Assembly: GCA_044892525.1 (NCBI GenBank)
Contig: CM097886.1
Coordinates: 121,334,001-121,398,000 of the forward strand
Direction of reading: 5' to 3'
Length of the DNA stretch: 64,000 nucleotides
DNA from: Schmidtea polychroa
Lineage: Eukaryota
Shown here: in pieces, positions 19,956 through 50,039 of the stretch
Numbering within the stretch: position 1 is the stretch's first letter
Layout of the letters: every line of letters begins with the position of its first letter
Notes under the pieces: generated by a model
The model's input: only the letters and a program-made list of their open reading frames with translations
Database searches by the model: none
What the model was told of the DNA's origin: nothing
Program-made: the position numbers and the translations under genes

Positions 19956-20765
19956 ATTTTTACTGTTAATCTGGCAAACTAATCTTCATTCATTTCCGGA
20001 TAAAGTCGTTACTCGATATATCAAATTTTTCTAAAGCATGGTATTGTGATGTTTGAATATTATAAGTTTTATATTTGTATGTATAATTGTTTATATCTAG
20101 AGAATTTAAGCGTGTATTAAGGAAGTTTTGTAGAACCCGATAGAGTCACATATAAAAAGTGTCGGGACAATCGGGGTACTTGTATGTAAAATAACAATTA
20201 AATAAAATTATAAATTTTATTAACAAATAAATAAAAAATACTTCAGAAAATATGATATCGGTACTTGACAGAACAATTGACTGCGAAGATCCAACACAAA
20301 CGGCAGGTTTATCTATAATAATAGAGGTGGTAGATTAAGTAAAGAATTGTTGGGGCACTACTCGGTTGACCACCCTTAGTTCAACTTTCTAGCCTAGGGG
20401 ATGAACGCCCGTTACGATTATACCTGTCATTACTGTGTCACCCCGAGCAGGGCCCGTACATAATCTATACTCCAACATAGCACCCGTGAATTGCTTCACG
20501 TTGGAACTGTGCTATGATGGCGAGGTGCCAGTGAGCAGGTGAGCCACCTCCTTCGGACTACTCCTCACTGAGACCCCGACTTCCTAACCCTGACTGCCGA
20601 TAGAAGGACTTACGTCTACACATTCTGTCACCCTGTCGCCATACCCTTGGTTTGGATTGCAAATTGAACAATACTCCTCGAATCTCAAAAACCTCAATGC
20701 TATTTACCACTCAATGTTAAATCCCTTATGAACGAAAAACAAAACCCGTATACAGACAAAAATTG

Positions 20766-20771
20766 TTTATT
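20766..20771 (-). terminator. Candidate polyadenylation signal AATAAA in the LTR
   Basis: tttatt on plus, ~130 nt downstream of the LTR ORF stop and ~420 nt from the LTR end. Confidence 0.55.
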
Positions 20772-20901
20772 TCAAACATTGCAATACAGGCGCGTCGTAA
20801 TTTATACATCAGAATTAGAATAAGAGAAAACACAAGGACAGGAAACGATATTAGTTGATTCAGGACTCTCCGACGGATGAGGTCATCTCACGGGAAAATC
20901 C

Positions 20902-21651
20902 TCATTTTTCCCACTCGGAGTCGGCGAGTAACTCGTCCAAATCGAAGAATTCGGAGGCGTTTTCCTCCCACGTCACCCCAGCGGCAGATATGATCCGCCC
21001 TAGTGTTCTTGTTGTTAGGTCAATTACAGCAGGGACGTTATTGACATTACTCCCGAGGTCCGGCAGTTGCTTGGGCTGCTTCGCAGCTATTCGCTCACGC
21101 TGTTTCCTTTTGCGTTCAGCCCTTGATAGCTGCCGACGCTTTGGCTTGTTGGTCGATGAATTGTTTGGGGCTACCGCCGATGTAGAGGCGACGTTAGGCA
21201 GTACCCGACTATTTCCAACAAAAACCACCTCTAGTTGCTCTGGCGAGAGTTGTGTTTCTACGCACGGCCGGCAAGGTTTTTTCGAAGGGAGCGACGATTT
21301 GGCAGAAGTATTATGGTGGGCCGGAAAGAGATTGTCGGCTTCACCGATGGGAATTTTCACTATCTTTCTAGTTGGCGCGGCCTGGATGTACACTTTATGC
21401 AGCGCCTCGGACTGCTCCTTGATCAAACTTCTTTGGGCACGACTCTCGGAGATTAGAGCGTCCCGGCAATGTTCACTTCGGTGTAATTTCTTTTGGGTCT
21501 CTTTCATCTGGGCGGGACTAAACCATGTCCCCTCTAACTCGTCTATCTTCTTTTTGTACCGTCCGATCTGGGTCTGCAGGTCCTTGATTATCGCGTTCTT
21601 GTCGGAACAAGAAAAACAGGGTCTGAGGACGGTTTTTGCAGTGGGTAACAT
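20902..21651 (-). CDS. LTR-encoded 249-aa protein (coiled coil, basic NLS-like patch, acidic-aromatic tail)
   Basis: ATG-to-stop ORF intact in both LTRs, in a GC-rich island; KPKRRQLSRAERKRKQRER; C-terminus EENASEFFDLDELLADSEWEK. Confidence 0.7.
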   Translation of the reverse strand: MLPTAKTVLRPCFSCSDKNAIIKDLQTQIGRYKKKIDELEGTWFSPAQMKETQKKLHRSEHCRDALISESRAQRSLIKEQSEALHKVYIQAAPTRKIVKIPIGEADNLFPAHHNTSAKSSLPSKKPCRPCVETQLSPEQLEVVFVGNSRVLPNVASTSAVAPNNSSTNKPKRRQLSRAERKRKQRERIAAKQPKQLPDLGSNVNNVPAVIDLTTRTLGRIISAAGVTWEENASEFFDLDELLADSEWEK

Positions 21652-24358
21652 GTCTGCTAGCTAAGAAGAATAATAACACTAAATGGGATAGATCAAATTT
21701 AGAAAATCATCATTTTTCGCCACCATTCGTTAATCAATATTAGACATTTTTACAGGAAAAGAAAAACGGATTATTTATCAAGAGGGATTTCCTATGCCAT
21801 CAACCTATGCGTACTCTGGGTGTTTATTCACTAGAAAATCAACTGATAACATTAGGCTTTACTTAACGAAGGTTGTACATCATTGTTAAAGAAAATGAAA
21901 ATTACATGTTTAAGAGGAATTATTGATGACGGAAATTTTTCTTGAAGAGGGTAAATAGCATTGAAAATTCAACCCGAACTAAATAATTACTAAGTGAAAA
22001 TTTAGCTAATCATTATAATGATTTTATAGATAATTAGATAAGTTGGTTTTAATTCATCATTAAGTAAAAATATTAAATTTTTGCAGTTCCAGTAATAGAC
22101 TTGGATTAATTGAGTTGCATTTTGTTTGTATTTTATTTAGGCTTTCGATTATATTGTCTATAATTTATTATAATTTTGTTTTCAAATCTCACATTTATTT
22201 ACTATTTTAAAATTAATTATTGAGTTGTTGGTGACTCGTGTTATCATCACTCATGTCTAGTGCTTTCGGTAAATAGCCGAGATTTTTATCTGACACACCC
22301 GGTGGACTTTTCTCAAGTTAGCCGTTCGCGGTAAAATATCTACTATCGGGTTAGATGACTATGCAATCTCAAGGAACGTATCACCTGGAAGATAGACTCG
22401 TAGAATTATGGCTAGTGATATCCGTGTTATTATTGGTGAGCACCAGCATGTGGACTTTGGCTATTAGAACTTGCAATGTGTGCATTTACACATGTGTGCG
22501 GGTACTCACTTCGTGAGACTCTTATCCTTTTGGCAGCTTGCATGAATCATCAGATGTTATATTACACCGTGTTGAATTTCTATCTCTCGTGGAAATTTTG
22601 CATAGGCAGATTTTGCGTACCGCTATTACTGGATGTAATTCGTTTCGTAGACAAACTGGTCAACTATTCAAGCTATAATTTCTACTCCCCTCATGGATTT
22701 TATCATCATCAACATGCCCACTGTCTATATCGAGTTGGAAATTTATTAACTATCGCTGGAAATACAATTCGACGAAATGCGGATATTCCATCATCCTCCG
22801 TGACATCTCTAAGACTCGGATTTTATTCCCATGGAGGGTCTATCGGATCAGTTACCTCCCATCCTAACTTTGCATCAGTTGCCACAAACGTTTGGTATTC
22901 GATATACAAGGGAATGACATGTTTGATTGTTTTTATAAATACATTTTTCCTGACTAGATTCATTATTATTTTATGGTTTATTATTTTTGAGAACTATTTG
23001 TTTGTCACAATTCACCACAAGTAGGTTTTTAGAGAGACGCAGCAAAGTTGATTGCACGTGATGGATATAGATGATGAAAGTAGCAGTTATGAAGATCCTT
23101 AGGCTGAAGGTTTCAGGAATAATTTCGAGTGGAATCATGAACGCAGATAATATGCTACAAATGATGTCCAGACTGATTTAACGGAAAATCCTGTATAGAT
23201 CTTCAGATGATAGTACCAATTTCAATTTGATAAAGACAATAGTATGACGCCCTCAATCACTGTGCGAACTCTCGAACAAGATTTTTCCTCATATGACTAC
23301 ACTTCCCATTGCTTGATAGTTACCATCTCTCTACAGTATTGTTCACATATTTTAGTCGCATCTTCAGCGACGGACCCGTGAGGAAGCCCCCACATTACGG
23401 CCCGAATCAGCTGCGTGATTGAAAATCGCCATGTCCACCGGCTGAGCTCCCGAAGGCACCTCATACCATGACATGGAGTTTCTCAACGCCACGTTTCTCG
23501 GAAATTTATAATCATTAAATAATAATGCATGAAAATCAATCAGGTATCGAATCGAATAAATGGTTACTCGAAATTTACGTCGATTGTTAACTGTTTGATA
23601 ATATCTCCTGGTTTCTAGATTGATTCTCGTACGTTGCTGCTGTTTACCTGTAAAGTTGGTTGTTTAACTGTAACTGTTAAAATTTATCTTACCTGTAAAG
23701 TTGGTTGTTTAACTGTAAGTTTATAATTTTTGTGTTTCCTTATATATTAATTTTTGATGTGTGCGGACCAATCAGAATTGAGTGCCGCTTAATTTTATTG
23801 CTTTAATTTATTTTTCTTGTTTTTGAGTTATTTTTTCCTATTTTCTTTATTTTTATTGTGTTTTTTATTTATTTTCTTTAATTTCTTTATTATTTACTAC
23901 ATTTTACGTTATTTTTTGTCATTCTATTGTCCTATTTCAATTTTCCTTATTTTTATATTTTTTGTTTTAACTCTTATTTTCTAATTTTTTATTTTTCTTA
24001 TATCCTATTCTATTTTATTCTTAAATTTGTTTTGTTTTATTTTTATTTTAATTTAATTATGTTTAACCTAATTTCTTGGATACCCTTCGACTCAGCCCAA
24101 CAAATCACTCGGGGACCCATCAAAATTGCGTCCCGCAATTGCATACTAAATTTATTTCGTACATTCCACCAAAGCTAAAAATAAAAATAAATAACAAAAT
24201 GGTACAACATAAAATTTATTAATAAGATGTAGGTCAAACCAAGACCAAGCAGTCATCACTTATGGTGATGGTTTATATACAAAGCAAAATTTCACAATGT
24301 AATGTTTAGTTCAGTTATGGTATTGTTCGATTATTCTGATGGTTTTGGTTGGAGTTTG

Positions 24359-24979
24359 TTACTGCGGTTGAGAATGGATATTATGGTAGGCTTGACGACT
24401 GGATGATGGTTGAGGAGATTCTTTGTTGGCTAATCTGGGTGGGCTTGTGGTTTGGATAGCATTGGCGAGTTCGACTGAGTTTTGTATGGGGGCTCTCGAT
24501 TTCGAGCTCTGACGATTTTTCTTAACTTCGAGGATTTTCAGGAGGGTTACGAGACATAGTAAGATAGTTTCTGCGATCACTACGTAGAGAAGGTAGTGGG
24601 TGTCGCTGTTATTAGAGGGGTTTTCTGCGGTCTCTGCAGGGTTTTCGAACATTTCTTGTTGCACTTGTTGTTCCAGCTGATCGAAGTGTTGGATTTGTTC
24701 GAGTATTTTCTTGTCTATCATTCGGCATATAGGACTATTCTGGCATAGACTTCTGATATTATTAACATATGACCGAGCCGATTGGATATTATGGAGGAGG
24801 TTGGTTTTTATTGTACTGGGGTATTTGCATTGGCAAGGGTCTGATTTGGCTTTTTGATTCCGATTGCGGTGGTCTCGTATGCTTGTTGGTTGGGCATTTA
24901 ATGGTTGTTTCTCCATCAGGTGATTTATCAATACCATTACTGTTATTGTCATACCATACCACATTGTACTAATATACAT
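24359..24979 (-). CDS. Small putative type-I membrane protein (cargo ORF)
   Basis: N-terminal hydrophobic segment, CQC...C...C, TM YLLYVVIAETILLCLVTLL, basic/Ser-Pro tail; AATAAA downstream near 24215. Confidence 0.6.
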   Translation of the reverse strand: MYISTMWYGMTITVMVLINHLMEKQPLNAQPTSIRDHRNRNQKAKSDPCQCKYPSTIKTNLLHNIQSARSYVNNIRSLCQNSPICRMIDKKILEQIQHFDQLEQQVQQEMFENPAETAENPSNNSDTHYLLYVVIAETILLCLVTLLKILEVKKNRQSSKSRAPIQNSVELANAIQTTSPPRLANKESPQPSSSRQAYHNIHSQPQ

Positions 24980-25018
24980 TTATTATTATTATATTATTTA
25001 CACTGGCTTTAATGGCTT

Positions 25019-25729
25019 TTAGTTAAACGGTTCTGCTTTGGGATTATTTTCGGCGGTTCTCATCAGGGTAGACTCCGCTTTAATGACCCTGTGTCTCAAC
25101 TCGGGCAGCATTTCCAATTGTCTGTCCTTTTCACGGGCCTCCCTTTTCATGTGTCTTATCTCCTTTTCCAATCTTCTAATTTCTTCCCGTTTTTTATCGA
25201 GATTCTTTTTTAGTTCGATTTGTAGGAAATCTTGTTCGTTTTCTTGCGAAAGGTTTCGTTGTTGTTGTTGTTGCTTTTTCTCGATCTCTTGGTATTTGCG
25301 AATCCATTTCTTCATTTCCTCACTTTCTCGTTGTTTTTCCTCCAATTGTCGATTTAATTTATTTATGGTTATTTGGCGTTCTTTCGCTTCTGTTTTCCAG
25401 TAGTCTTGGATTACTTCTTCTGCTTTGAAGCTTGCCCTCTCTTGCCATAATTCCTCTGCAATCTTTTCCCAATTTCTCCCTCGCTTTCGTTGTTCCTGTA
25501 ACCATTCATTCTCCCCCTCAACTTCTTTCTTTACTTCTCCCAATACTTTGCATTCTTTCTTTAGTATTTTTATTATTTTTCGGTCTTCTATGTATTTGTT
25601 TATTAATCTCCCATTTTCCCGTTTCTCTTCTCGTAGCTTTTCCTTTAATATTTGCGTTTCTATAGTTTCCACTTCAATCTCTCCTTCTTCCAGTTCATTC
25701 GTGAGTTCTATTATTTCTTCAATCTTCAT
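25019..25729 (-). CDS. Coiled-coil protein (cargo ORF, 236 aa)
   Basis: E/K/R/Q-rich heptads throughout; ATG start. Confidence 0.7.
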   Translation of the reverse strand: MKIEEIIELTNELEEGEIEVETIETQILKEKLREEKRENGRLINKYIEDRKIIKILKKECKVLGEVKKEVEGENEWLQEQRKRGRNWEKIAEELWQERASFKAEEVIQDYWKTEAKERQITINKLNRQLEEKQRESEEMKKWIRKYQEIEKKQQQQQRNLSQENEQDFLQIELKKNLDKKREEIRRLEKEIRHMKREAREKDRQLEMLPELRHRVIKAESTLMRTAENNPKAEPFN

Positions 25730-25897
25730 GTCTATAATATTTATAATTAATCATGCGCTACAATGCGGCTTATACTTATACATTTATATCATTTTTATTT
25801 ACACAGGGTTACAGTACCTCAATTTTATACTATTAATTTTTTTGTTGGGATACAGTTCCCATTTTTTTTTTTTTATATTTTTGTTTTTTGACTTGGA

Positions 25898-26857
25898 CTA
25901 CACAAATGACTCTTCCTGACCCCAGTATCCCTCGTCGCTTTCTACTGCTAGGTTCAGGTGGATTGCTATAGGATCGTGTGGTGTATAATGGTGGGTTAGT
26001 TGAGCCCTTAGCTCGTATACCTCATCTCTTAGAGCTCGAGTGATATTCAGCTCCTCATCGAGTAGGTAGGTGAGGTATCTCGTCTCATCGTCTTTTGCCT
26101 CTAATTGCTTGCCTAACTCTTTAATCTTTTCATCGCCCTTCCACTTTTCAATCTCTATCTCCAGATTTTTGAGATTTTCATTATACATTTTTCTTTCATT
26201 TTCCAGCTTTCTATTTTTCCCTGTCAGCACCATGTTTCGCTGTTCCAGGGCCCCTTGGTATCCATTGACATCTCGTTCTAGCTCGGCGACTTTATTTACT
26301 AATTCTACTACTCGTCCCGATTGCTGAACTATCATTTCTTCCATTGCTGCATTCTCGTGCTCTTTTATGGAGATTTTCATGGCTAAGTGTCTTTCAAATC
26401 CCATGGCTTTGGTCTGCCATGTTTGGCTTCGGGCCGCTATCTTCCTTAGCCGCTTTAGTTCTTCTTTTATGACTAGATTCTCTTCCCATTTGCCTTGTTC
26501 GCTCTCATATTCTAATCTCATAGGCAATTCCTTCATTTCCTTCTTTATCTCTCTGCTCTGTCGCTTCCATTTCCTGGCTTCTGCCAATAGGTGATTCATT
26601 TTCCTTCCTTCCTTTTGTTTTTCTGCTTCTCGTTTTGTGTTCTCGTCAGTCAATCGTTTTCGTGCCTCTTGCACTAATTGTTTTCGGTAGTGACTGTGTG
26701 CTTCCTGGCGTGTGTTTTCTAGCGACGCCCACTTGGAGGCTCTTTTACATGCTTCTGCTTCGATTCTTAAGTTGTTCACTAGCCATCGATATCTACTACT
26801 CTCGTCTTCTCTGGCTTCTTCGATGTGATTGCGGGTTAGGTTGGTCAATTGGAACAT
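25898..26857 (-). CDS. Coiled-coil protein (cargo ORF, 319 aa)
   Basis: Long heptad-rich ORF; AATAAA at 25794-25799 (minus). Confidence 0.7.
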   Translation of the reverse strand: MFQLTNLTRNHIEEAREDESSRYRWLVNNLRIEAEACKRASKWASLENTRQEAHSHYRKQLVQEARKRLTDENTKREAEKQKEGRKMNHLLAEARKWKRQSREIKKEMKELPMRLEYESEQGKWEENLVIKEELKRLRKIAARSQTWQTKAMGFERHLAMKISIKEHENAAMEEMIVQQSGRVVELVNKVAELERDVNGYQGALEQRNMVLTGKNRKLENERKMYNENLKNLEIEIEKWKGDEKIKELGKQLEAKDDETRYLTYLLDEELNITRALRDEVYELRAQLTHHYTPHDPIAIHLNLAVESDEGYWGQEESFV

Positions 26858-27146: not shown

Positions 27147-28553
27147 CTACTCGGTTCTGCTCTTTCCCTCCTTCCTCACTGTCATCTTGATATATACGGT
27201 ATCATTTCTCGCCATATCCTCTATCTTTTGTTGTAAAATGAATGTAGGTGCTCCTGTTGCTGCTCCTTCTTCTTCAAGGGGTCTTTGGTTGGCTAGTTGA
27301 TTTCCCGTGGTCTTGAAACTTTGTTCGTGGATACTTTGGTCATTCATTATTGGGATATCGATTTTTGCCTGGAACGGCCATTCTATTATTTCGTCGTGCT
27401 CCCCTTTACATACTAAGAAGAAGATCGAAAAGTGTGTATCCAACCCGGTTCCATCTCCGTTAGGATATATCTTCATTTTCATTTTGTATCCGTTCTTCCA
27501 TGAGAGGAATGCGGGACTGGTTATTCTGGTATCTTCTCCGATTTTTGCTCTTCGTATCTTTTCTTTCACTCCCGTAATTTTCCATATGTAAGGTGCGGTT
27601 GGTAGTATTTCGTTGAGATTTATCTCGGTTATTTTTTGATGTAGCACCTTGGCTTGCTCATTACTGATTTCCATTCGATTAATTTGCATTTTTATGTTTG
27701 CTCGAGCTTGTTCGAAAGCCTCTTTTTCTTCTAGTAGTTCTTTTACTAATGCCTTCAGTGAGGTTATTTCTATCTCCATTTGTTGCACTTTCTCTTCACT
27801 TTCTTGTAACGCAGTTGACCACATCTCTGCGTGAGTTATTACATTTTCTGTTAAGTGGTGTGGCAAGTCTCCTCGGTGCAGTAATTTCTGACATCCCCAT
27901 TTGCCTAGTACACATATCATTCTTTTCCTTTCGCATTCTTTTAGATGCTGGGCTATTTTTATTATTCCCCCTTTGTTGCATTCGTTCGGGCATTCACCAC
28001 AGAATTCTGCACATACCTTTTCCTCCTGGATATTGTGATGTTTGATGGTGAGATTTTTCCAAGTGTCTATTTCTCCGCAATATTCACATCTTTCCAACCT
28101 TTCCTCGCACTGGCTTTGATGTTCCTTTTCTTCGTTAGCTTGAATTAATTTCTGGCATCGCTCACACTGGCTGACTTTGTACATACATTCCCCCAGATGT
28201 TGTTTCACTTTCCATATTGATCCTTTCCATTCACATGGGGTATTTTTACATCCTAGATTAGTGTTCAACATGTCCTTTACTGCGGCTTTATCTTCATTAG
28301 TATCTTCTAAACTGGATATCAGTGTCTCTTTACATATCGGACACCACTGTGGTCGGTTTTTTATTGTTTCTTTTATACATTCTTTGCACACTCTGCATCC
28401 GCATTGGGTTTGATGGGGTTCCTTTAATAGCTTTTCACATATTCCACACGTGACATGTTTGTGTATTCTGATTGCTGCGGAATTTCTGACTAACTCGATA
28501 ATTTCGTTAAACTCCTCTCTTCGTTGCTTATCCATGTCTACAATTATATACAT
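27147..28553 (-). CDS. Intronless full-length TRAF-family protein carried by the retroelement
   Basis: RING CGIC...QCGCRVC...CPIC; several TRAF zinc fingers; coiled coil; MATH YIWKI...NGYKM..KIYPNGDG...THFSIFF...IEWPF. Confidence 0.92.
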   Translation of the reverse strand: MYIIVDMDKQRREEFNEIIELVRNSAAIRIHKHVTCGICEKLLKEPHQTQCGCRVCKECIKETIKNRPQWCPICKETLISSLEDTNEDKAAVKDMLNTNLGCKNTPCEWKGSIWKVKQHLGECMYKVSQCERCQKLIQANEEKEHQSQCEERLERCEYCGEIDTWKNLTIKHHNIQEEKVCAEFCGECPNECNKGGIIKIAQHLKECERKRMICVLGKWGCQKLLHRGDLPHHLTENVITHAEMWSTALQESEEKVQQMEIEITSLKALVKELLEEKEAFEQARANIKMQINRMEISNEQAKVLHQKITEINLNEILPTAPYIWKITGVKEKIRRAKIGEDTRITSPAFLSWKNGYKMKMKIYPNGDGTGLDTHFSIFFLVCKGEHDEIIEWPFQAKIDIPIMNDQSIHEQSFKTTGNQLANQRPLEEEGAATGAPTFILQQKIEDMARNDTVYIKMTVRKEGKSRTE

Positions 28554-28618
28554 ATAGTTCTTATCGATACAGGTTCGATATTTTATTTACAATTATTTAC
28601 ATCTAATTTAGGTTTCGT

Positions 28619-28978
28619 TTATGGTTCAGAAGAGTCGGCCTCCTGTCCGCCCTCTTCTCTGTTCATTAACCATTCTGACCAATCTTCCATTTCTTCGTAT
28701 TCTGCTTCTTCCGCCATTCCCACTAACTCTTCCTCCTGTCTCTGGCTGTATCTTGTTATCCGCTCTATTTCTCTTTGCATCTGTTCGATTATTGCCCTCT
28801 GATCCTCAATTATTTTTAAATAGCTAAATCCCTTGTTTAGACTATCAATTAGGTTTCTTTGCATTGTAAGTCCTTGCTCTTGTAGGTTAGATACTATTTG
28901 TGCTAGTCCCGCGCATTGTTGCTTCCACATGTCTTCGGTTGTTGTATTGCGATTTATTTCGTTATTTCTTTGCTCCAT
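28619..28978 (-). CDS. Small coiled-coil protein with acidic tail (cargo ORF, 119 aa)
   Basis: ATG ORF; TATATAAG upstream near 29065-29072; AATAAA at 28582-28587. Confidence 0.55.
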   Translation of the reverse strand: MEQRNNEINRNTTTEDMWKQQCAGLAQIVSNLQEQGLTMQRNLIDSLNKGFSYLKIIEDQRAIIEQMQREIERITRYSQRQEEELVGMAEEAEYEEMEDWSEWLMNREEGGQEADSSEP

Positions 28979-29139
28979 TCTTAATTTTTATACATTCTCA
29001 ACTTGGTTTTGTTTAATTTTATATGGTTTATTCTCCCAATCTTTATATACTAATAATACCGCGCTTATATAAAAATATGATACTGTTATATACATAAGAT
29101 ATACTTACTTTTTACAATTATATACAGTCATAACCCCTT

Positions 29140-30702: not shown

Positions 30703-30705
30703 TCT

Positions 30706-31257
30706 CTATGTTAATAATAATTTCATGGCTTCTAGATTTTCCCGTACCGTATTCCACTGAAAATGAGATGTGTTTTTGCAAATATTTTCAACTTCTTCCT
30801 TTGTCGCATTTTTGCATATGAACCTGATCATTTCTAGGTTCGGCTGTATGGTTGCCCAGTCCATTGTGGAGTTTCCTTCGGTTGACTTTTCATCTAGTCT
30901 TGATCCTGATTGATGTAGTATATGGAGTGTTTTTGGGTGTATTTTCGTTATAGCTGCATACATCATGGCGGTTTCGCCTTGTTCGTTTTTCGTGTTGGTT
31001 TCCTCGCCCAAATCTCTGAGGATTCTTATTATCGTTATTGCTCGGTTTTCCTTTGCTGCTAATATTGTTTGATCCCTTGCGTATGTGTGTACGGTCTTTA
31101 TTTTTTTAGCCAATATCATTTCGTCTGATAACTCTAGCATTTCCTCAAAGAATACTTCTTTCGCTTTGCGTATTATTGTTTCTTGATCTAAATTTCTTGG
31201 TTTCGTTTTGATGACGTTATTCGCTGCAATTTGATTCGTTTGCGACTTCGGTTCTTT
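30706..31257 (-). CDS. Ankyrin-repeat segment, in-frame continuation of pol after a single TGA
   Basis: EQGETAMMYAA, TEGNSTMDWAT; 39 open codons link the TGA at 31258-31260 to the ATG at 31140. Confidence 0.75.
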   Translation of the reverse strand, partial: KEPKSQTNQIAANNVIKTKPRNLDQETIIRKAKEVFFEEMLELSDEMILAKKIKTVHTYARDQTILAAKENRAITIIRILRDLGEETNTKNEQGETAMMYAAITKIHPKTLHILHQSGSRLDEKSTEGNSTMDWATIQPNLEMIRFICKNATKEEVENICKNTSHFQWNTVRENLEAMKLLLT

Positions 31258-38299: not shown

Positions 38300-38317
38300 T
38301 TCTACGTGATTTGCAAA

Positions 38318-41086
38318 TTATTTATTGGGTATTTTCCTCGCAGCTAATCCCATCAAATTATACATCAAATAAGTTATTACCACTAGATGGTGTTCATCAT
38401 CGTTTGCGTTCGTTGTGAGTTGTTCGATTACTCTCCTTGTTTCATCCCAGTCCGTTTTAGTGGTTTTTGTTTTTTCTTTGATTAACTTTGGGATTATTCC
38501 TGATACGATGTGCCATAGTTGTCGAACTTCCACGCTTGCTACTTTCCGTTGCCACAAACGTCTGAGTTGCGGGTTTGTTATTATTAACATATCTTTTATT
38601 AATTCCCGTATCCACTTTTCTCCTCTCTCGATCGTTGGTTGGGCTTCTTTCAGATCCCATACTATTTTATCTAACATTTCCAATCTGACTTGTCCTTGTT
38701 CTTGCTTTAATTGTTCTCTGGTTTTAAATTCAGGTTTTTCTCCTTGTTTCTTGGGTCTCCCTTTTGCCCGTTTTTCCATTGTTGTTCCGGCTTCTCTGGT
38801 ATTTTCGTAACTCGGATTTCTTTCATTATCTGTTCTGGGCAATGAGCTGTCATTATTTCTTAGCCATTCATTCCATTTGTCTATTATTTTATCGGTTTGA
38901 CCTTCCGGAGTTATTCTTGTCGGTTCTCTTTGTTTCTTGAATTGTTCATCCGTTTCCGTTTCTGTCGTATTGTCGATGATTTCTTCGATATTTAGTTTCT
39001 CCGGTTGTTGATAACTCGTCGACGGTCTGCTGGTTGTCCAAATCTCGGCTCCCGTCGGCCATCTCACTAATAGCGGCGATCTTTCCCCAGGTTCATCGTC
39101 ACTATCTTCTAGGATAATCTCCTCGACCTCCTCGGTTTCATTCGATTTACTTGGTGCTTTGTTCGGACTTGGGGTGCTCAAACTACCTTTTGTTGGTTTA
39201 CCATTTTTACTTTTCCTTTTTAACGGTTTCCCCAACGTTTCTGCCATTGTCAATACGTTTGTCTCTTCCAACCTCATAGGTGTTATTCCTACGTCCGCAT
39301 TATCATCTAATGATTTTCCTTGCAGCTGTAGATGGAATGGGGTTTCGTACGCCAATTTCTTTTTTAATTCTCTGATTTTTGTGGTTGGATGTACCTCTAC
39401 TTCCTCAACGTTTTTATCAGGGTATTTAATTCGAATTCGATATCTTTCTTGGGTGTCCTCTGACCATTCATGGTTTCGCCACTTCCCGATAATTTGCTCC
39501 AATTGTTCCGGGTACCATTCGTTGTATTGTCGGTATTCCTCTATAACTTTTACTATCTCTCTCAAATAGTGGATATTATCCGATATTTTTAGAATGAAGT
39601 TGGCCAGTGCTATCACTTGCCTTTTTTGATTCTTTGTTCCCGTCTCTAAGATATCGCCTAGTTGCTTATATCTCTCTTTCTCTTCTCGATCTCTCGCTTC
39701 CTTCGCCTCCTCACCGTCTATATCGGCATATTCACGTTCCTTTTTCCTCATCGCATGGATATGTCTGGCTTCATTTTCACTTTCTGATGTGACGTCCGTC
39801 TCGCTCTCGTCATCTGATGTCTGTTCCATTGCTTCCTCTTCATATTCTGGAGGTTCATCTTCTTCCTCCTCTGGCTCTTCATCCGTCTCCTCGATTTCTG
39901 TTTCTATGAAGATTCCTTTCTTGATTTCCCATTCCTTCTTTTCCGCGTTCCACACTCTTTCCCATGGGGTTCGTCTACAGGATCTGGTACTTAGTTTCGT
40001 TATTTTTCCTTGTAGTTCCTTTTCTTTTAACCATTGTTGGTGGATTTCAATTATTTCTACGGATTTCTGATATAACGTCTTCATCCGATCTCGTATCTCC
40101 TTTTGATAGGTTACATCCCTCGTTCGGAATTCATCCATTGGTACTATTCTGATTATTTGGTGATCAACCCACATGCCCATTTCACTTAATGAGGTGTCGT
40201 CTTCAGTTCGTAGTATTATTTTATCGTACATCATGACTATATCGTCTATCATACCATCGTCACTCTCGCTTCGTACTCTTTCCGTTATCTCTTGGTTTAT
40301 CCTTTCTACTAATTCGTCTACCGTGCTTTGATTACTGATTTTGATTCGTCGTTTTTCCTCATTTGGCAACCATATCGTTACTTCCAATTTTCTTGGTTGC
40401 GTTTCTTTTAACCGTCCATATTTGTGGATTAAATTGACGGTTCTCCAATCACTCATCCTGAGGAGTTCCGTATCGCGTAATCTGCTCATTAACTCGTGCA
40501 TCTCGGGGGCTCGTCTGGCTATGAGTAAATCCCAATTATCATCTACTTGTTCTTGAATTTGTTTGATGAGCTTGTCTAGGTTTCGTTTCAAAGTACATTG
40601 TTTTATTTGTTCCAATTTCAGTTTGATGTTAAAATCATATTCGGCCTTAGCGTCTTTAGCCCAATCATAGATATTGGCTGGTTGTTTCTCTTTGTGCAGC
40701 TTTAATATTTGGGTTTCTCCTGGCCATACCAGTGCGTCTACCAAGTGCATATCTGGTTTGATTTGCTCTCCTTGATATTGGTACAGGTACTCCTTTTTCC
40801 TCGAGCTACCTAAATGTTCTCGTATCCAATCGAAAAGTTCGTCGGTGACGGTATTTTTAACCCATATTCTTTCAAGTCCTTTACTTGTTCCGATTTTTAT
40901 TACATATCGCGTGGTATCGGCCTGCTTCATTTTTTCCATATACTTTTTTATTATCGACTTTTCCTCGTTTGGTATTAAATCTTTCTCGTTTCTTTCCAAT
41001 TTCATCACTTTCTGTACGAATCGTCTAAATGGTATTACATCGATGAACTCTTGGTTTCTCACTACCACTGGGAGTATTTCGGCTAC
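38318..41086 (-). CDS. Polyprotein segment with three ubiquitin-like domains, an acidic linker and the N-terminal part of a Bcl-2-like domain
   Basis: In frame with gag (single TGA) and with the next ORF (single TAA); UBL-like segments ~40910-40700, 40390-40140 and 39445-39245. Confidence 0.7.
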   Translation of the reverse strand, partial: VAEILPVVVRNQEFIDVIPFRRFVQKVMKLERNEKDLIPNEEKSIIKKYMEKMKQADTTRYVIKIGTSKGLERIWVKNTVTDELFDWIREHLGSSRKKEYLYQYQGEQIKPDMHLVDALVWPGETQILKLHKEKQPANIYDWAKDAKAEYDFNIKLKLEQIKQCTLKRNLDKLIKQIQEQVDDNWDLLIARRAPEMHELMSRLRDTELLRMSDWRTVNLIHKYGRLKETQPRKLEVTIWLPNEEKRRIKISNQSTVDELVERINQEITERVRSESDDGMIDDIVMMYDKIILRTEDDTSLSEMGMWVDHQIIRIVPMDEFRTRDVTYQKEIRDRMKTLYQKSVEIIEIHQQWLKEKELQGKITKLSTRSCRRTPWERVWNAEKKEWEIKKGIFIETEIEETDEEPEEEEDEPPEYEEEAMEQTSDDESETDVTSESENEARHIHAMRKKEREYADIDGEEAKEARDREEKERYKQLGDILETGTKNQKRQVIALANFILKISDNIHYLREIVKVIEEYRQYNEWYPEQLEQIIGKWRNHEWSEDTQERYRIRIKYPDKNVEEVEVHPTTKIRELKKKLAYETPFHLQLQGKSLDDNADVGITPMRLEETNVLTMAETLGKPLKRKSKNGKPTKGSLSTPSPNKAPSKSNETEEVEEIILEDSDDEPGERSPLLVRWPTGAEIWTTSRPSTSYQQPEKLNIEEIIDNTTETETDEQFKKQREPTRITPEGQTDKIIDKWNEWLRNNDSSLPRTDNERNPSYENTREAGTTMEKRAKGRPKKQGEKPEFKTREQLKQEQGQVRLEMLDKIVWDLKEAQPTIERGEKWIRELIKDMLIITNPQLRRLWQRKVASVEVRQLWHIVSGIIPKLIKEKTKTTKTDWDETRRVIEQLTTNANDDEHHLVVITYLMYNLMGLAARKIPNK

Positions 41087-43370
41087 TCATTTTATCGCTT
41101 CCTCTCTTTCTTTTCTCAATTGTATTTCGATATCCTCGTCCTCACTTTCGCTGGTTATCTCGCTTTCGCTTTCGCTTTCCTCTTTGGTTTCCCCTTTTGA
41201 CGGTTCGCCATCTTCGTTCAGCTGTAGTATTTCTCCCCCCAAACTGCTCACATAGTCTTCATCTGATGACGACGTACCTTTTGTCTCTTTCATCATGTTG
41301 ATTCGCAAATTACTCATCCTTGGTACTCGCTTTAGTTTCTTATTTTCGAATATCGTTGTTTCTTCGAATTCTAATTCTTGTAGTATTTTGTGGTTTAGGT
41401 GACTGGTTTGTTCCTGGTCTTTTTTACTATCATCTTTTGCCTCAGTTTTCGTTTTGTCATGTTCCTTTTCGATTTTGTCTTTTATCTTTTTCCAGAATAT
41501 TCTCTGAATTCTTTGGTTTCCTTTCAGTATCGTTGTTGGACCTTCCGTTCCGTTTTCTGTTGTTGTTTCTTTTACTTTTTCCGGTTCAGCCATCGGCACT
41601 ATTCTTGGGTTTTTCCCATAGTTGTAACAATATTGCTCTTTAACGTCCCTTATTAATCTCATCATATTTAGTCGTAAGGGTTGCCCTTGTCGTTGCTGGT
41701 CGCGTTCTTGTTTTATTCTCTCTTCTTCGGCCTGCAACCTTTGCCAATCCTGTGCATGTTGCTGTCTCTCGTAGTTGTTGATGTTTTCGGTGCTTCTCAT
41801 CATCCGTATATTCTGTGTTTGCTGAGGCGCCGGTTCCGGTCTTGGTCGCAGTAATTGATGCATCATCTGTTTCATTTGGGAGATTTCTTGCATGACGTTC
41901 ATTTGTTTCCCTTCACTGGGGTTACTTTGTCGTTGCGGATTCGACATATAATTATTATTCCGTTGTGGCGGTCGTTGTTGTTGGCCTCTTTCTCGGCATT
42001 CCCTAGATATATGGCCTGGTTGTCCGCAGTTAAAACATCCTCTCGTTTGGCATATATTCTCCGTATGCCCCCGTCGTCCGCAACGATTGCAATTTGCATT
42101 TCTATAACAATCTCTGTCCCAATGTCCTGATTTACCACAGGTTAGGCATTGTTTGTTGTCGTTCCCATTTCGTCGATTATTAAAATTATTCCCGTTATTT
42201 GGGTGGTTACGTTCGTTGTTATTCCCATTTGATCGTCCTTGTGGTGGTTTGAAAATTTGATGCGCTCCGGGTATGAATTGATTCATTTTTGGTTCTTGGT
42301 TATTGATATCTCCACCATCTGTTTTTACCATGGCTGTTGCTATCCTCCCATCCTCTTGCATAATATTCATTTGAGCTGGGAGGTGGAGCTCGCATCGTGT
42401 GGCCCAATCTATGGCCTCTTCCAACGTTTTACACATTTGGCATCCCACCGATGCTCTTACTTCTTCTCGGCGTAGTCCCTCTATGAAATAGCCGATCAAA
42501 TTTTCCTCTGGCAATTTCCCATTCATTGCTTTCTTTGCTAATCTCCGTAATTCACTTGCATATAATGTTATTGATTCATTGGTTCTCTGTTTTCTATTGG
42601 CTAGTTCGCCGAGTGCTTGATTTATTGGCTTGCTCGCTCCGAAAGTTTTCTTCAGAAATGTTTTGATATCTTCCCATTTATCTAATTTCGTGTCTCTCTC
42701 TTTAGCTTCTAAGTACACTTCCAATGCACTATCACATAAAAACAACGGCATTCTTTTGCTAACCGCTTCGGCTGTCCATCCACACACCGTGATATAGACC
42801 TCAAAGTTGGTTATAAACGTTGTCAATTTGTTTGCATTTCCGTTGAACAGTTCGCCTCTAAAGTTTTCTTTATACTCGTCGGTTTTTACCACATTCGTCA
42901 TGATTGGTTCTCGAGTTTCCACTGTTTCTTTTAAGTTATCTAATAACTGGGTTAGGTTATGGACGGATAGTTCTTCTGTGGATGCTGATAAACTGTTCGT
43001 GATATCTATTATACTTTCTCGGCTTTTCGCTCGCTTCGGGGTAAATTGGATTGTTGGGTTTTCTTTGTCGTCTATCAATATTCTGTTCGTCTCGTTAGGT
43101 CCTTGCGATGATCCTCTCCTGTGACGGGTTGATCTAGCTCTCTTGATGCTTTGCAGCTGATCTACTGAAAATAACGTATCGTATTGATTACTTGAGGATC
43201 GGAGTGTTCTTTGATTTGCCGTGACTTCTTCCTGTTACTCCTTTGTCTTTCCTTGGCTCCTTTCCGTTTGATCGGGTTCTGGATTGGTTATTTCTGGTTG
43301 GTTGTTGGTTTCTTCGAATTCCTTTTGCGCAGGTTCTGGATTGGCTTGCTTGACTGGATTGGTTGGATAT
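41087..43370 (-). CDS. gag: Gag (capsid-like domain and three CCHC knuckles); frame open from 43370 with one TAA at 43235-43237
   Basis: CLTCGKSGHWDRDC, CNRCGRRGHTENIC, CFNCGQPGHISREC; capsid-like FNGNANKLTTFITNFE...RKQRTNESITLYASELRRLA. Confidence 0.9.
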
Positions 43371-44083: not shown

Positions 44084-44521
44084 GACTGGCTGGCACTTTT
44101 CAACAGCTCAATCTTCATTATCCTGACCGGCTGGACTTTTCACAACTCGGTCTTAATATCTCCGAACTGGCTGGACTTTTCACAACTCAGTTTTAATTTC
44201 CCTGACCGGCTGGACTTTTCAACAACTCGGCCTTAATATCTCCGAACTGGCTGGACTTTTCACAACTCAGTTTTAATTTCCCTGACCGGCTGGACTTTTC
44301 AACAACTCGGCCTTAATATCTCCGAACTGGCTGGACTTTTCACAACTCAGTTTTAATTTCCCTGATCGGCTGGACTTTTCAACAACTCGGCCTTAATATC
44401 TCCGAACTGGCTGGACTTTTCACAACTCAGTTTTAATTTCCCTGACCGGCTGGACTTTTCAACAACTCGGCCTTAATATCTCCGAACCGGCTGGACTTTT
44501 CAACAACTCGGCCTTAATATC
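44084..44521. repeat. Tandem array of ~11 40-bp monomers alternating A/B (80-bp higher-order unit) in the element leader
   Basis: A = cctgaccggctggacttttcaacaactcggccttaatatc (e.g. 44201-44240); B = tccgaactggctggacttttcacaactcagttttaatttc (44241-44280). Confidence 0.95.
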
Positions 44522-45071: not shown

Positions 45072-45614
45072 TCATTCACCATAATAAACCATATGAGTTT
45101 CCTTTATCTCATACTTGCATATCGTACATCGTTTCAACTCGTTCACGCATTCTTCACAGTGACTGAGGTGTCCACAAGGCAAGAACAGTACGCGAATAGG
45201 GCGAAGTTTGCAACACAGACAGGATCGTAATCTAGTGACTTTTTCCTGGATCTTTTGTTCGATTATGTCGGTTATAGTATCTAATTGATCTCGTATTCGA
45301 TGATATTCTAGATTTAATGCAGGGTGTCTCAATCTTTCCTGATACCACTGATATATGGTTTCGTGATTTACTTTACCATCTGTACGACTTAGGCCTATGG
45401 CTAGTAATATATGGTTAGGTACGACTGGTGCTTGTCCCATTGTTTGTAGTTGTATGCTCTTAATTCTCTCTCTTTTGTGTATGAGTGTTTTTATAGGGTC
45501 GTTTTCTATATCGATGAAGTTGATTAATTGTTGAATCTGTTCTGCGAATTCCTTCATGTCTATTGGGAAAAGAAAATATCTTAATAGTATACAACTAATT
45601 AATGGTTGTTTCAT
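45072..45614 (-). CDS. IAP/Mdm2-type C-terminal RING protein between the PBS and gag
   Basis: CLCCKLRPIRVLFLPCGHLSHCEECVNELKRCTICKYEIKETHMVYY at the extreme C-terminus; no BIR recognised; ATG at 45614 or 45557; AATAAA at 44946-44951. Confidence 0.85.
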   Translation of the reverse strand: MKQPLISCILLRYFLFPIDMKEFAEQIQQLINFIDIENDPIKTLIHKRERIKSIQLQTMGQAPVVPNHILLAIGLSRTDGKVNHETIYQWYQERLRHPALNLEYHRIRDQLDTITDIIEQKIQEKVTRLRSCLCCKLRPIRVLFLPCGHLSHCEECVNELKRCTICKYEIKETHMVYYGE

Positions 45615-45867
45615 CAAACATTTTCCTTTTTAAATCGTTATAATTTATTTTACTTTATCTTATTTCCCCATTATTGAATTTACTTTATTATATCTTTAAT
45701 TTTATTATATTCTAATCATAATTTTATAATAAGATTCGATGAGCATCAGTCAATTTGCACTCGCCAATCAATTAAAATCAATAATCCCGGTAAATTCACA
45801 CTATTCAACAAAATCCCAATCAATATCCCGGTGGAGTTCACACTAGTTAATGGAAATTTCAATCTAG

Positions 45868-45885
45868 ATCCCGGCTGAGCCCCCA
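45868..45885 (-). promoter_or_regulatory. Primer-binding site, tRNA-Pro-like
   Basis: TGGGGGCTCAGCCGGGAT is 16/18 identical to the classic tRNA-Pro PBS TGGGGGCTCGTCCGGGAT; 7 nt from the LTR end. Confidence 0.85.
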
Positions 45886-46446
45886 AAAATCATGTTGGGG
45901 CACTACTCGGTTGACCACCCTTAGTTCAACTTTCTAGCCTAGGGGATGAACGCCCGTTACGATTATACCTGTCATTACTGTGTCACCCCGAGCAGGGCCC
46001 GTACATAATCTATACTCCAACATAGCACCCGTGAATTGCTTCACGTTGGAACTGTGCTATGATGGCGAGGTGCCAGTGAGCAGGTGAGCCACCTCCTTCG
46101 GACTACTCCTCACTGAGACCCCGACTTCCTAACCCTGACTGCCGATAGAAGGACTTACGTCTACACATTCTGTCACCCTGTCGCCATACCCTTGGTTTGG
46201 ATTGCAAATTGAACAATACTCCTCGAATCTCAAAAACCTCAATGCTATTTACCACTCAATGTTAAATCCCTTATGAACGAAAAACAAAACCCGTATACAG
46301 ACAAAAATTGTTTATTTCAAACATTGCAATACAGGCGCGTCGTAATTTATACATCAGAATTAAAATAAGAGAAAACACAAGGACAGGAAACGATATTAGT
46401 TGATTCAGGACTCTCCGACGGATGAGGTCATCTCACGGGAAAATCC

Positions 46447-47196
46447 TCATTTTTCCCACTCGGAGTCGGCGAGTAACTCGTCCAAATCGAAGAATTCGGA
46501 GGCGTTTTCCTCCCACGTCACCCCAGCGGCAGATATGATCCGCCCTAGTGTTCTTGTTGTTAGGTCAATTACAGCAGGGACGTTATTGACATTACTCCCG
46601 AGGTCCGGCAGTTGCTTGGGCTGCTTCGCAGCTATTCGCTCACGCTGTTTCCTTTTGCGTTCAGCCCTTGATAGCTGCCGACGCTTTGGCTTGTTGGTCG
46701 ATGAATTGTTTGGGGCTACCGCCGATGTAGAGGCGACGTTAGGCAGTACCCGACTATTTCCAACAAAAACCACCTCTAGTTGGTCTGGCGAGAGTTGTGT
46801 TTCTACGCACGGCCGGCAAGGTTTTTTCGAAGGGAGCGACGATTTGGCAGAAGTATTATGGTGGGCCGGAAAGAGATTGTCGGCTTCACCGATGGGAATT
46901 TTCACTATCTTTCTAGTTGCCGCGGCCTGGATGTACACTTTATGCAGCGCCTCGGACTGCTCCTTGATCAAACTTCTTTGGGCACGACTCTCGGAGATTA
47001 GAGCGTCCCGGCAATGTTCACTTCGGTGTAATTTCTTTTGGGTCTCTTTCATCTGGGCGGGACTAAACCATGTCCCCTCTAACTCGTCTATCTTCTTTTT
47101 GTACCGTCCGATCTGGGTCTGCAGGTCCTTGATTATCGCGTTCTTGTCGGAACAAGAAAAACAGGGTCTGAGGACGGTTTTTGCAGTGGGTAACAT
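46447..47196 (-). CDS. LTR-encoded 249-aa protein, 5' LTR copy
   Basis: Same ORF as 20902-21651 with two amino-acid changes (P/A, E/D). Confidence 0.7.
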   Translation of the reverse strand: MLPTAKTVLRPCFSCSDKNAIIKDLQTQIGRYKKKIDELEGTWFSPAQMKETQKKLHRSEHCRDALISESRAQRSLIKEQSEALHKVYIQAAATRKIVKIPIGEADNLFPAHHNTSAKSSLPSKKPCRPCVETQLSPDQLEVVFVGNSRVLPNVASTSAVAPNNSSTNKPKRRQLSRAERKRKQRERIAAKQPKQLPDLGSNVNNVPAVIDLTTRTLGRIISAAGVTWEENASEFFDLDELLADSEWEK

Positions 47197-49284
47197 GTCT
47201 GCTAGCTAAGAAGAATAATAACACTAAATGGGATAGATCAAATTTAGAAAATCATCATTTTTCGCCACCATTCGTTAATCAATATTAGACATTTTTACAG
47301 GAAAAGAAAAACGGATTATTTATCAAGAGGGATTTCCTATGCCATCAACCTATGTGTACTCTGGGTGTTTATTCACTAGAAAATCAACTGATAACATTAG
47401 GCTTTACTTAACGAAGGTTGTACATCATTGTTAAAGAAAATGAAAATTACATGTTTAAGAGGAATTATTGATGACGGAAATTTTTCTTGAAGAGGGTAAA
47501 TAGCATTGAAAATTCAACCCGAACTAAATAATTACTAAGTGAAAATTTAGCTAATCATTATAATGATTTTATAGATAATTAGATAAGTTGGTTTTAATTC
47601 ATCATTAAGTAAAAATATTAAATTTTTGCAGTTCCAGTAATAGACTTGGATTAATTGAGTTGCATTTTGTTTGTATTTTATTTAGGCTTTCGATTATATT
47701 GTCTATAATTTATTATAATTTTGTTTTCAAATCTCACATTTATTTACTATTTTAAAATTAATTATTGAGTTGTTGGTGACTCGTGTTATCATCACTCATG
47801 TCTAGTGCTTTCGGTAAATAGCCGAGATTTTTATCTGACACACCCGGTGGACTTTTCTCAAGTTAGCCGTTCGCGGTGAAATATCTACTATCGGGTTAGA
47901 TGACTATGCAATCTCAAGGAACGTATCACCTGGAAGATAGACTCGTAGAATTATGGCTAGTGATATCCGTGTTATTATTGGTGAGCACCAGCATGTGGAC
48001 TTTGGCTATTAGAACTTGCAATGTGTGCATTTACACATGTGTGCGGGTACTCACTTCGTGAGACTCTTATCCTATTTGGCAGCTTGCATGAATCATCAGA
48101 TGTTATATTACACCGTGTTGAATTTCTATCTCTCGTGGAAATTTTGCATAGGCAGATTTTGCGTACCGCTATTACTGGATGTAATTCGTTTCGTAGACAA
48201 ACTGGTCAACTATTCAAGCTATAATTTCTACTCCCCTCATGGATTTTATCATCATCAACATGCCCACTGTCTATATCGAGTTGGAAATTTATTAACTATC
48301 GCTGGAAATACAATTCGACGAAATGCGGATATTCCATCATCCTCTGTGACATCTCTAAGACTCGGATTTTATTCCCATGGAGGGTCTATCGGATCAGTTA
48401 CCTCCCATCCTAACTTTGCATCAGTTGCCACAAACGTTTGGTATTCGATATACAAGGGAATGACATGTTTGATTGTTTTTATAAATACATTTTTCCTGAC
48501 TAGATTCATTATTATTTTATGGTTTATTATTTTTGAGAACTATTTGTTTGTCACAATTCACCACAAGTAGGTTTTTAGAGAGACGCAGCAAAGTTGATTG
48601 CACGTGATGGATATAGATGATGAAAGTAGCAGTTATGAAGATCCTTAGGCTGAAGGTTTCAGGAATAATTTCGAGTGGAATCATGAACGCAGATAATATG
48701 CTACAAATGATGTCCAGACTGATTTAACGGAAAATCCTGTATAGATCTTCAGATGATAGTACCAATTTCAATTTGATAAAGACAATAGTATGACGCCCTC
48801 AATCACTGTGCGAACTCTCGAACAAGATTTTTCCTCATATGACATCACTTCCCATTGCTTGATAGTTACCATCTCTCTACAGTATTGTTCACATATTTTA
48901 GTCGCATCTTCAGCGACGGACCCGTGAGGAAGCCCCCACATTACGGCCCGAATCAGCTGCGTGATTGAAAATCGCCATGTCCACCGGCTGAGCTCCCGAA
49001 GGCACCTCATACCATGACATGGAGTTTCTCAACGCCACGTTTCTCGGAAATTTATAATCATTAAATAATAATGCATGAAAATCAATCAGGTATCGAATCG
49101 AATAAATGGTTACTCGAAATTTACGTCGATTGTTAACTGTTTGATAATATCTCCTGGTTTCTAGATTGATTCTCGTACGCTGCTGCTGTTTACCTGTAAA
49201 GTTGGTTGTTTAACTGTAACTGTTAAAATTTATCTTACCTGTAAAGTTGGTTGTTTAACTGTAAGTTTATAATTTTTGTGTTTC

Positions 49285-49318
49285 CTTATATATTAATTTT
49301 TGATGTGTGCGGACCAAT
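49285..49318 (-). promoter_or_regulatory. Candidate LTR promoter: CCAAT box (49314-49318) and TATATAAG (49292-49285)
   Basis: Motifs read directly (also 23768-23772 and 23739-23746 in the 3' LTR); a 30-bp direct repeat with 45-bp period lies just downstream. Confidence 0.5.
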
Positions 49319-50039
49319 CAGAATTGAGTGCCGCTTAATTTTATTGCTTTAATTTATTTTTCTTGTTTTTGAGTTATTTTTTCCTATTTTCTTTATTTTT
49401 ATTGTGTTTTTTATTTATTTTCTTTAATTTCTTTATTATTTACTACATTTTACGTTATTTTTTGTCATTCTATTGTCCTATTTCAATTTTCCTTATTTTT
49501 ATATTTTTTGTTTTAACTCTTATTTTCTAATTTTTTATTTTTCTTATATCCTATTCTATTTTATTCTTAAATTTGTTTTGTTTTATTTTTATTTTAATTT
49601 AATTATGTTTAACCTAATTTCTTGGATACCCTTCGACTCAGCCCAACAGAATTTTAAATTTCTAATGAATTCGCCTTGGGTTAAAAACCGATCTTTATTT
49701 TATAATCTTTATAATCAAAACTTGTAGTTGTTATATGGAACCTTTATATACTACACGACCTTTTTCTTTAATTTAGAATTTTTCCGATTTCTTTAATATT
49801 GTACTGATATATCAACTAACGTTGTAAGTTTTCTTTTCCTTTTATAACAATTCCGCGAATAACTTCTTAATTGGTGTTTGATTTCGTATTATTTATTTTA
49901 TGATTTATTTTTTCGACTTTTTGTAATTCTCTAATTATTCAGAGAATTATTCTATATAGTACTATTTTAATTTTATAGTATCCTAAAAAAAATAATATTA
50001 AGAATAACTTTATAATGTTATTCCTATTACAATTACATA

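Follow-up and report, generated by a model that had tools for sequence, protein, structure and literature searches.

A Burro-type giant Ty3/gypsy element in Schmidtea polychroa: a recently inserted, coding-defective copy from a family whose cargo genes are under purifying selection

The giant retrotransposons known as Burro or GYPSM1 are the closest described relatives of the element analyzed here. In the passages of PMC6431247 on which we draw, they are reported to encode AIR1 zinc knuckles together with Smc, MATH_TRAF_C, BIR, ankyrin, BCL2-like, Ubi/SUMO-like and dUTPase-like domains, with an in-frame env located between gag and pol; the same passages suggest that they may be integrated proviruses and propose that their cargo meddles with apoptosis and ubiquitination. 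Six Schmidtea GAG-ENV-POL elements with a gB-type env (Smed_errantivirus_1-6) are described in the relevant sections of PMC13524379, and excerpts of PMC8532177 report that BURRO1 RNA is up in gut cells after smedwi-2 knock-down. An expansion of planarian TRAF genes, with 121 MATH domains, has been reported in passages of PMC6109357 that make no tie to Burro. The sections consulted of PMC11410931, PMC13238120 and PMC8797187 held nothing further on the cargo, and no later functional study of it was found in the literature searched. Here we examine a 64,000-nucleotide stretch of Schmidtea polychroa DNA (contig CM097886.1, positions 121,334,001 to 121,398,000; hereafter the window), which contains a Ty3/gypsy element of 29,301 bp on the minus strand at 20348..49648.

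The window element shares with Burro/GYPSM1, as far as the published passages describe it, a size of about 30 kb, multi-kb long terminal repeats (LTRs), one giant open reading frame (ORF), a Gag with CCHC knuckles, Ubi/SUMO-like and BCL2-like domains, the series protease-reverse transcriptase-RNase H-integrase, ankyrins, TRAF/MATH and an Smc-like coiled coil. In both, env lies in frame between BCL2 and the protease and matches mononegavirus-type glycoproteins. Unlike Burro1/GYPSM1, the window lineage has neither a MATH (MATH_TRAF_C) domain in its polyprotein nor a BIR; its full-length TRAF has an ORF of its own, downstream of the polyprotein, which has about 4,586 codons as against 4,873 in Burro, no dUTPase-like domain was detected, and the window copy is broken. 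Because BIR and the in-polyprotein MATH are missing, the lineage is, as judged from its predicted gene content, Burro-type but not Burro1; the comparison was made with the published description, and figures of Grohme 2018 and Jurka 2007 may already name this family. The same genome contains a sister family (L156-L163; G000:C1 21.53 Mb and C2 12.97 Mb), about 35 kb long and flanked by LTRs of 4.75 kb. It is Burro1-like, with a 4,688-aa ORF that has MATH inside, a second TRAF ORF and a BIR-RING ORF, and is 90% identical to the window lineage in reverse transcriptase and about 60% identical across env-pol.

Two further comparisons can be drawn. The Burro-like element of Dugesia (Girardia) tigrina, as outlined in PMC6431247, likewise has a polyprotein without MATH_TRAF_C and TRAF as an accessory ORF, but there the TRAF lies upstream rather than downstream and the ORF is 5,140 aa long with a midasin-like region. 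The Smed_errantivirus_1-6 elements share the Ty3/gypsy pol and the class III gB-type env between gag and pol, and by eye the window env is nearest to the HSV/gB-type Smed_errantivirus_5 row (PMC13524379, supplement 3); the six Smed rows list no tRNA primer site, whereas the window element has a perfect tRNA-Pro site, and the words Burro and ankyrin are missing from the main text of that paper.

The initial annotation had treated this cargo as foreign to LTR retrotransposons and had proposed a complex, possibly infectious retrovirus-like element with host-modulating genes. The env-bearing anatomy and the selected cargo stand. The claim of novelty fails, because the gene set, the env position and the provirus and apoptosis ideas are already in print in the passages seen of PMC6431247; with the kind of element and its cargo already known, the finding as originally written is a rediscovery. 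What the present analysis usefully adds is selection data, support for a Bcl-2 fold, the lack of a clear polypurine tract and the proportion of TRAF and BIR matches that elements carry. Our reading, to which we give a probability of about 80%, is that the window holds a Burro-type giant Ty3/gypsy element that was inserted recently and is defective in coding, and that the cargo of its family likely keeps the host cell alive with immune signalling damped.

Recent insertion is seen in the ends of the element. Self-comparison of the window revealed a direct repeat of 3,756 columns with 99.73% identity (9 substitutions and 1 indel), in agreement with the 29-kb size and ~99.7% LTR identity initially annotated; both LTRs have TG...CA ends, and GAAT is duplicated on each flank. 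Ty3/gypsy membership follows from these ends, from the tRNA primer site, from the order of the pol domains and from a reverse transcriptase that is closest to Ty3 as judged by best matches. The ends and non-coding parts are:

45893..49648, minus strand, 5' LTR, 3,756 bp
20348..24102, minus strand, 3' LTR, 3,755 bp
20344..20347 (left) and 49649-49652 (right), no strand, 4-bp target-site duplication GAAT
46447..47196, second copy at 20902-21651, minus strand, 249-aa ORF within the LTR, with no family match
45868..45885, minus strand, primer-binding site, an 18-nt perfect complement of the tRNA-Pro(TGG) 3' end
44085..44509, no strand, tandem array of an 80-bp unit (5.3 copies) in the 5' untranslated region
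24103..24144, minus strand, conserved non-purine motif of ~40 nt adjoining the 3' LTR, at the expected site of the polypurine tract

For comparison among copies we used 26 other loci taken from the best genome matches, 24 of them covering most of the polyprotein; as loci were chosen among the best 40 of 318 to 2,104 candidates per search, they are neither a census nor a random sample. The primer-binding site, which begins 7 nt past the end of the 5' LTR, is perfect in 16 of 27 stretches of the window lineage. The LTR ORF gave no usable match in the ESM Atlas.

The polyprotein is read on the minus strand through the following parts:

41087..42901, minus strand, piece 1: Gag capsid domain, CCHC zinc knuckles and spacer, ending at a private stop
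38318..41086, minus strand, piece 2: up to three ubiquitin-like segments, acidic/low-complexity spacers and most of the Bcl-2-like domain, ending at a private stop
about 40915-40691 (by eye only), 40396-40130 and 39451-39230, minus strand, the ubiquitin-like segments within piece 2
38153..38662, minus strand, Bcl-2-like domain, interrupted here by the stop at 38318-38320
36317..38113, minus strand, env: internal signal-like segment, class III (gB-type) fusion ectodomain, transmembrane helix at 36373-36317
35441..35716, minus strand, aspartic protease with a DTG motif
34145..34942, minus strand, reverse transcriptase with YIDD, closest solved relative Ty3 reverse transcriptase, frameshift just downstream near 34110
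33757..34134, minus strand, RNase H
32704..33402, minus strand, integrase with H2C2 zinc finger and DDE core
30706..31980, minus strand, two blocks of ankyrin repeats; private stops lie at 31258 and 30706
29140..30705, minus strand, C-terminal polyprotein region with two hydrophobic segments and a final stop common to 23/23 copies

Downstream and upstream of it lie separate accessory ORFs:

45072..45614, minus strand, 180-aa ORF with a C-terminal IAP-type RING finger and no BIR
28619..28978, minus strand, 119-aa ORF
27147..28553, minus strand, 468-aa intronless TRAF with RING, zinc fingers, coiled coil and MATH
25898..26857, minus strand, 319-aa coiled-coil-like ORF, homologue of a 532-aa ORF of the sister family
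25019..25729, minus strand, 236-aa charged, coiled-coil-like ORF
24359..24979, minus strand, 206-aa predicted membrane protein, the fastest-evolving ORF

Most domain calls of the initial annotation were confirmed by searches. The env ectodomain, which sits between gag and protease/pol, matches the Pfam family Monjiviricetes_fusion (PF24664, E 2e-68), and the ankyrin blocks match Ank_2 (E 1e-14 and 9e-8). The 468-aa TRAF finds TRAF3/2 in the PDB (E 4e-26), and the RING of the 180-aa ORF finds the cIAP2/cIAP1/XIAP RING (E 5e-10). Membrane segments are predicted in env, the C-terminal polyprotein piece and the 206-aa ORF. The ubiquitin-like domains were recovered solely as weak Pfam matches below cut-off (Rad60-SLD, E 2e-4; RA-like, E 0.003-0.008). 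The BIR of the sister family matches 0/27 stretches of the window lineage and the window ORFs contain no Pfam BIR; therefore the RING gene is not a full IAP. A 96-aa segment between protease and reverse transcriptase is conserved (dN/dS, the ratio of nonsynonymous to synonymous change, 0.04) and had no match in Pfam or PDB searches; the published dUTPase-like call used HHpred. Homologue searches returned only two env-bearing proteins (39% identity) and one distant TRAF.

The evidence that the cargo matters to the element comes from selection. Pooled pairwise dN/dS among up to 25 copies was 0.01 for reverse transcriptase, 0.03 for the Gag capsid, 0.03 for the Bcl-2-like domain, 0.05-0.08 for the ubiquitin-like domains, 0.06 for env and 0.08 for the ankyrins. 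For the other ORFs it was 0.11 for the TRAF (0.08-0.12 for its parts), 0.13 for both the RING and the 119-aa ORF, 0.10 for the LTR ORF and 0.06, 0.11 and 0.33 for the 319-aa, 236-aa and 206-aa ORFs; as pairs share ancestry, these values are descriptive and not a formal test. As controls, seven stretches that were non-coding or off-strand, each read in three frames, gave 0.48-1.13, and shifted frames gave 0.8-3.7. These results show that every cargo ORF is under purifying selection across copies (dN/dS 0.03-0.33), which supports the view, at the level of sequence, that the cargo works for the element. With cargo in 19-24 of 25 copies and under constraint, decay in most copies, the outcome that would have undone the initial proposal, was not what we saw. 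Frames are open in 16/23 copies for the Bcl-2-like domain, 17/24 for env, 18-22 of 23-24 for the TRAF parts, 6/19 for the RING, 10/22 for the 206-aa ORF and 9/20 for the LTR ORF, counts in which divergent ORFs are probably underrepresented by the alignment. In copies with close siblings the private ratio of nonsynonymous to synonymous polymorphism (pN/pS) is near 1, as is usual for copies that decay once inserted. The window copy, 6-9% distant from its nearest sampled relatives, has a private pN/pS of 0.22, and therefore most of that distance arose under selection.

The TRAF, RING and other accessory ORFs of the window copy are still open. Its polyprotein is broken by in-frame stops at 41087, 38318, 31258 and 30706, the second of which runs through the Bcl-2-like domain, and by the frameshift near 34110. 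None of the stops is shared by another copy (0/20, 0/23, 0/22 and 0/23, respectively) and the frame differs at the frameshift in 23/23. Because stops and frameshift are absent from other copies and the final stop at 29140 is present in 23/23, the family encodes a single ORF of ~4,586 codons and the breaks in the window are lesions. The "complete element" initially annotated is thus complete in LTRs, target duplication and primer site and incomplete in coding, and from its sequence this copy is predicted to be unable to make its own enzymes from one polyprotein. Lesions are mainly private throughout the lineage: 2 of 48 stop columns are shared, each by two copies, which lends little support to mobilisation of templates already broken. 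The four nonsense changes exceed mildly the number expected from LTR divergence (about 1.0; P 0.018). Hypermutation of ADAR or APOBEC type was rejected as a cause of the breaks, since private changes are balanced between the strands (per kb of base, 3.8 each for A>G and T>C, 4.8 for G>A and 4.7 for C>T). Private one-base indels adjoin homopolymers in 19 of 46 cases against a background of 16%, and therefore some frameshifts, perhaps including that of the window, which adjoins a homopolymer, may be assembly errors.

Two readings that would take the breaks or the cargo differently can be set aside at this point. The pieces of the polyprotein follow one another in one frame across the stops, as they would if a working element used these as programmed signals for read-through or frameshifting; that reading is refuted by the finding that none of the stops recurs in any of 20-23 other copies, which are broken elsewhere, and we give it practically no weight. 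Nor do we see any real prospect that the cargo is neutral, hitch-hiking host DNA taken from neighbouring TRAF genes. Two host TRAF genes do lie in the same window and many more in the region, but the MATH domain of the element shares just 32% identity with theirs and has a separate position in a tree, where element-borne MATH domains cluster with weak support and long branches; moreover the cargo is intronless and recurs across copies, and the dN/dS values refute its neutrality. The neighbouring genes themselves are part of a 3.5-kb inverted duplication at 386-8620 of the window (arms 1-3529 and 5477-9006, 99.7% identical), with one host TRAF gene per arm: 1624-2973, with a RING exon near 1624-1977 and a MATH exon at 2539-2973, and its mirror at 7382-6033. 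Dozens of similar host TRAF genes are found on contig C2 around 105-124 Mb.

The Bcl-2-like domain required support other than sequence matches, as searches of Pfam, the PDB, the ESM Atlas, 1.84 billion representatives and, with long proteins only, a 5.8-billion-protein set were all without match. A profile of the window lineage and sister family compared with four host Bcl-2 genes gave E 6e-5 at a probability of 66% over 69 columns, and the GGW motif of BH2 is present. A fold model from a deeper alignment reached a predicted local distance difference test score (pLDDT) of 76, and the top 34 of 48,161 representatives matching it were all Bcl-2-fold (best Z 13.4, root-mean-square deviation 2.5, 137 aligned; next unrelated Z 5.6); this model is biased, as four host Bcl-2 genes were part of its alignment. 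Cellular pro-survival proteins and BAX head the fold matches, which also include non-apoptotic poxviral Bcl-2-fold proteins. Profile and modelling together make a Bcl-2 fold likely, in line with the initial call. In three families a hydrophobic segment, the env signal segment, starts 42-50 residues past the GGW motif. A smaller relative is a 13.4-kb gag-env-pol family (L164-L167; G000:C1 210.86 Mb) with 1,069-bp LTRs, a 3,029-aa ORF and 50% reverse transcriptase identity; a Pfam Bcl-2 match (E 6e-5) directly before its env shows that the linkage of Bcl-2 and env also exists in a much smaller relative.

The family polyprotein is ordered Gag, ubiquitin-like, Bcl-2-like, Env, protease, reverse transcriptase, RNase H, integrase and ankyrin, with RING, TRAF, coiled-coil and membrane-protein genes separate. 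In the mechanism we propose, reverse transcription would be primed by tRNA-Pro. Host signal peptidase may cut the polyprotein at env, and the element protease may cut it at a recurring five-residue motif, for which 11 sites were found against 2.2 expected in shuffles (reached in 0/1,000), the pattern having been chosen after seeing the data; eight checked sites are kept in 14-24 of 20-24 copies. The env signal segment could also anchor the Bcl-2-like domain to the membrane of the endoplasmic reticulum, Env would allow particles to leave by budding and to fuse with cells nearby, and TRAF and RING might serve in TNF/Toll-type signalling, either as ubiquitin ligases or as decoys. On the simplest reading, TRAF, RING and the other accessory ORFs would keep the particle-making cell alive with stress and immune signalling low. 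For any further move the window copy would depend on proteins supplied by another copy.

Several observations weigh against this account. The whole polyprotein ORF is open in 0/27 sampled stretches (longest frames 3,587, 3,416 and 3,275 codons), so that the sample does not demonstrate present-day activity of the lineage, and selection tells us that the element benefits but not through which pathway. Besides the bias of the deeper model, the unbiased fold model, made from a shallow alignment, was poor (pLDDT 53), its Foldseek matches were weak (E 0.14 and above, mostly Bcl-xL/Mcl-1), and a wide structural search with it led to generic helical repeats. The NWGR of BH1 is not kept, being replaced by unrelated residues and degenerate in three families; therefore BH3 binding is doubtful and anti-apoptotic action is not implied. 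In passages of PMC8532177, BURRO1 RNA interference (RNAi) gave no rescue of the smedwi-2 phenotype, a result that neither needs nor shows a role in cell death.

The cargo could instead be kept for the replication chemistry of the element and not for control of cell death: ubiquitin-like domains with RING/TRAF would serve ubiquitin-dependent budding or stability, and the Bcl-2-like fold would be a membrane-tethered scaffold or an NF-kB-type inhibitor like poxviral A52/N1/B14. The degenerate BH1, the missing BIR, the poxviral fold matches and the fixed place of the Bcl-2-like domain directly before env in families of different size all fit this possibility, which we regard as a credible second choice. 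The preference of the fold matches for pro-survival proteins and BAX speaks against it, as does the true BIR-RING gene of the sister family, from which control of apoptosis appears as a recurring theme. A fully infectious agent, with enveloped particles spreading between cells or animals and the cargo as a counter-defence kit in the style of large viruses, is rather unlikely in our view. In its favour, the env ectodomain is strongly constrained and mostly open, env has a transmembrane helix as well as a signal-like segment and is rich in cysteines, and the provirus hypothesis is in print in the passages cited above (PMC6431247); on the other hand, sections of PMC13524379 read env-bearing gypsy clades as mostly vertically inherited, and Env could serve only passage from soma to stem cells or from soma to germline inside one animal. 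Our preferred reading remains that of a coding-defective copy from a family with cargo that is likely cell-sustaining. Large DNA viruses carry host-modulating genes such as baculovirus IAPs, poxviral and herpesviral Bcl-2 and poxviral ankyrin proteins. The same protein folds would here be used by a cell parasite, with the difference that the predicted cargo rides on an LTR retroelement and lies largely inside its polyprotein.

The 3' end of the element has no clear polypurine tract. Within 70 nt of the 3' LTR there is no purine run longer than 7 nt, and the 7-nt run is distant from the LTR. The motif found in place of the tract has the same final 17 nt in 23/23 true rows of the window lineage; a close variant occurs in the sister family, and the smaller related family has a purine-rich end. 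Pairing of the motif with tRNA-Pro or the LTR ends was no better than in shuffles (254/500, 190/300 and 64/300), its folding is weak (z -1.9), and the one tRNA-Trp-like pattern tried gave no match. Plus-strand primers are not necessarily pure purine. No paper on a missing polypurine tract turned up, in searches that were not aimed at it. Together with the gap of 7-8 nt before the primer site, the motif suggests that DNA-end priming and processing may be unusual.

Further observations concern related loci and the surroundings. Loci on C2 and C1 (L049-L052; G000:C2 179.58 Mb and C1 190.24 Mb) have LTRs 97-98% like those of the window, with internal parts tandemly duplicated, deleted or nested. 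The tRNA-Pro(TGG) pattern has 2,186 matches in the genome, and the genes form a long tandem array with 475-bp spacing on G000:C1 from 130.90 Mb (L196). Plus-strand ORFs, which occur in the LTR and opposite the polyprotein, were disregarded; the one examined is without constraint (dN/dS 0.53-1.13, 4 copies). An intronless 146-aa histone-fold gene (CBFD_NFYB_HMF, E 8e-13) lies at 17968-18408 on the plus strand, 1.9 kb from the element. Elsewhere (L169:4792-5316; G000:C1 34.776 Mb) and in about 30 similar matches we found a repeated gene that is Bcl-2-like, is interrupted by one short intron and encodes a hydrophobic tail at the C-terminus; it is probably carried by a Maverick/Polinton-type element, because an A32-like ATPase and an rve integrase are a few kb away, and a literature search on it gave only a 2019 review.

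The most far-reaching joint reading would make Burro-type elements living enveloped retroviruses of planarians that actively suppress cell death, in which one signal segment starts Env and anchors the Bcl-2-fold protein, a conserved, structured motif replaces the polypurine tract as the start of the plus strand, and TRAF, IAP and Bcl-2-like genes, carried by the elements in their hundreds, account for a large part of the reported planarian TRAF expansion and influence how stem cells survive and animals regenerate; we consider this improbable as a whole. The selection result shows that the cargo serves a function for the element, and it names domains of interest where the 2019 review had a cargo role as an idea only. 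Many TRAF and BIR matches of this genome are element-borne. Among the best 150 of 1,551 MATH candidates, 13 lie in frames longer than 2,400 codons, while about 53, as counted by eye, have frames of 487/490 codons that resemble the TRAF ORF of the sister family, and nearly all of the best 150 of 309 BIR matches lie in frames like its BIR ORF. With so many MATH and BIR matches in elements, planarian TRAF and IAP gene counts and RNAi studies may mix host genes with genes of the elements.

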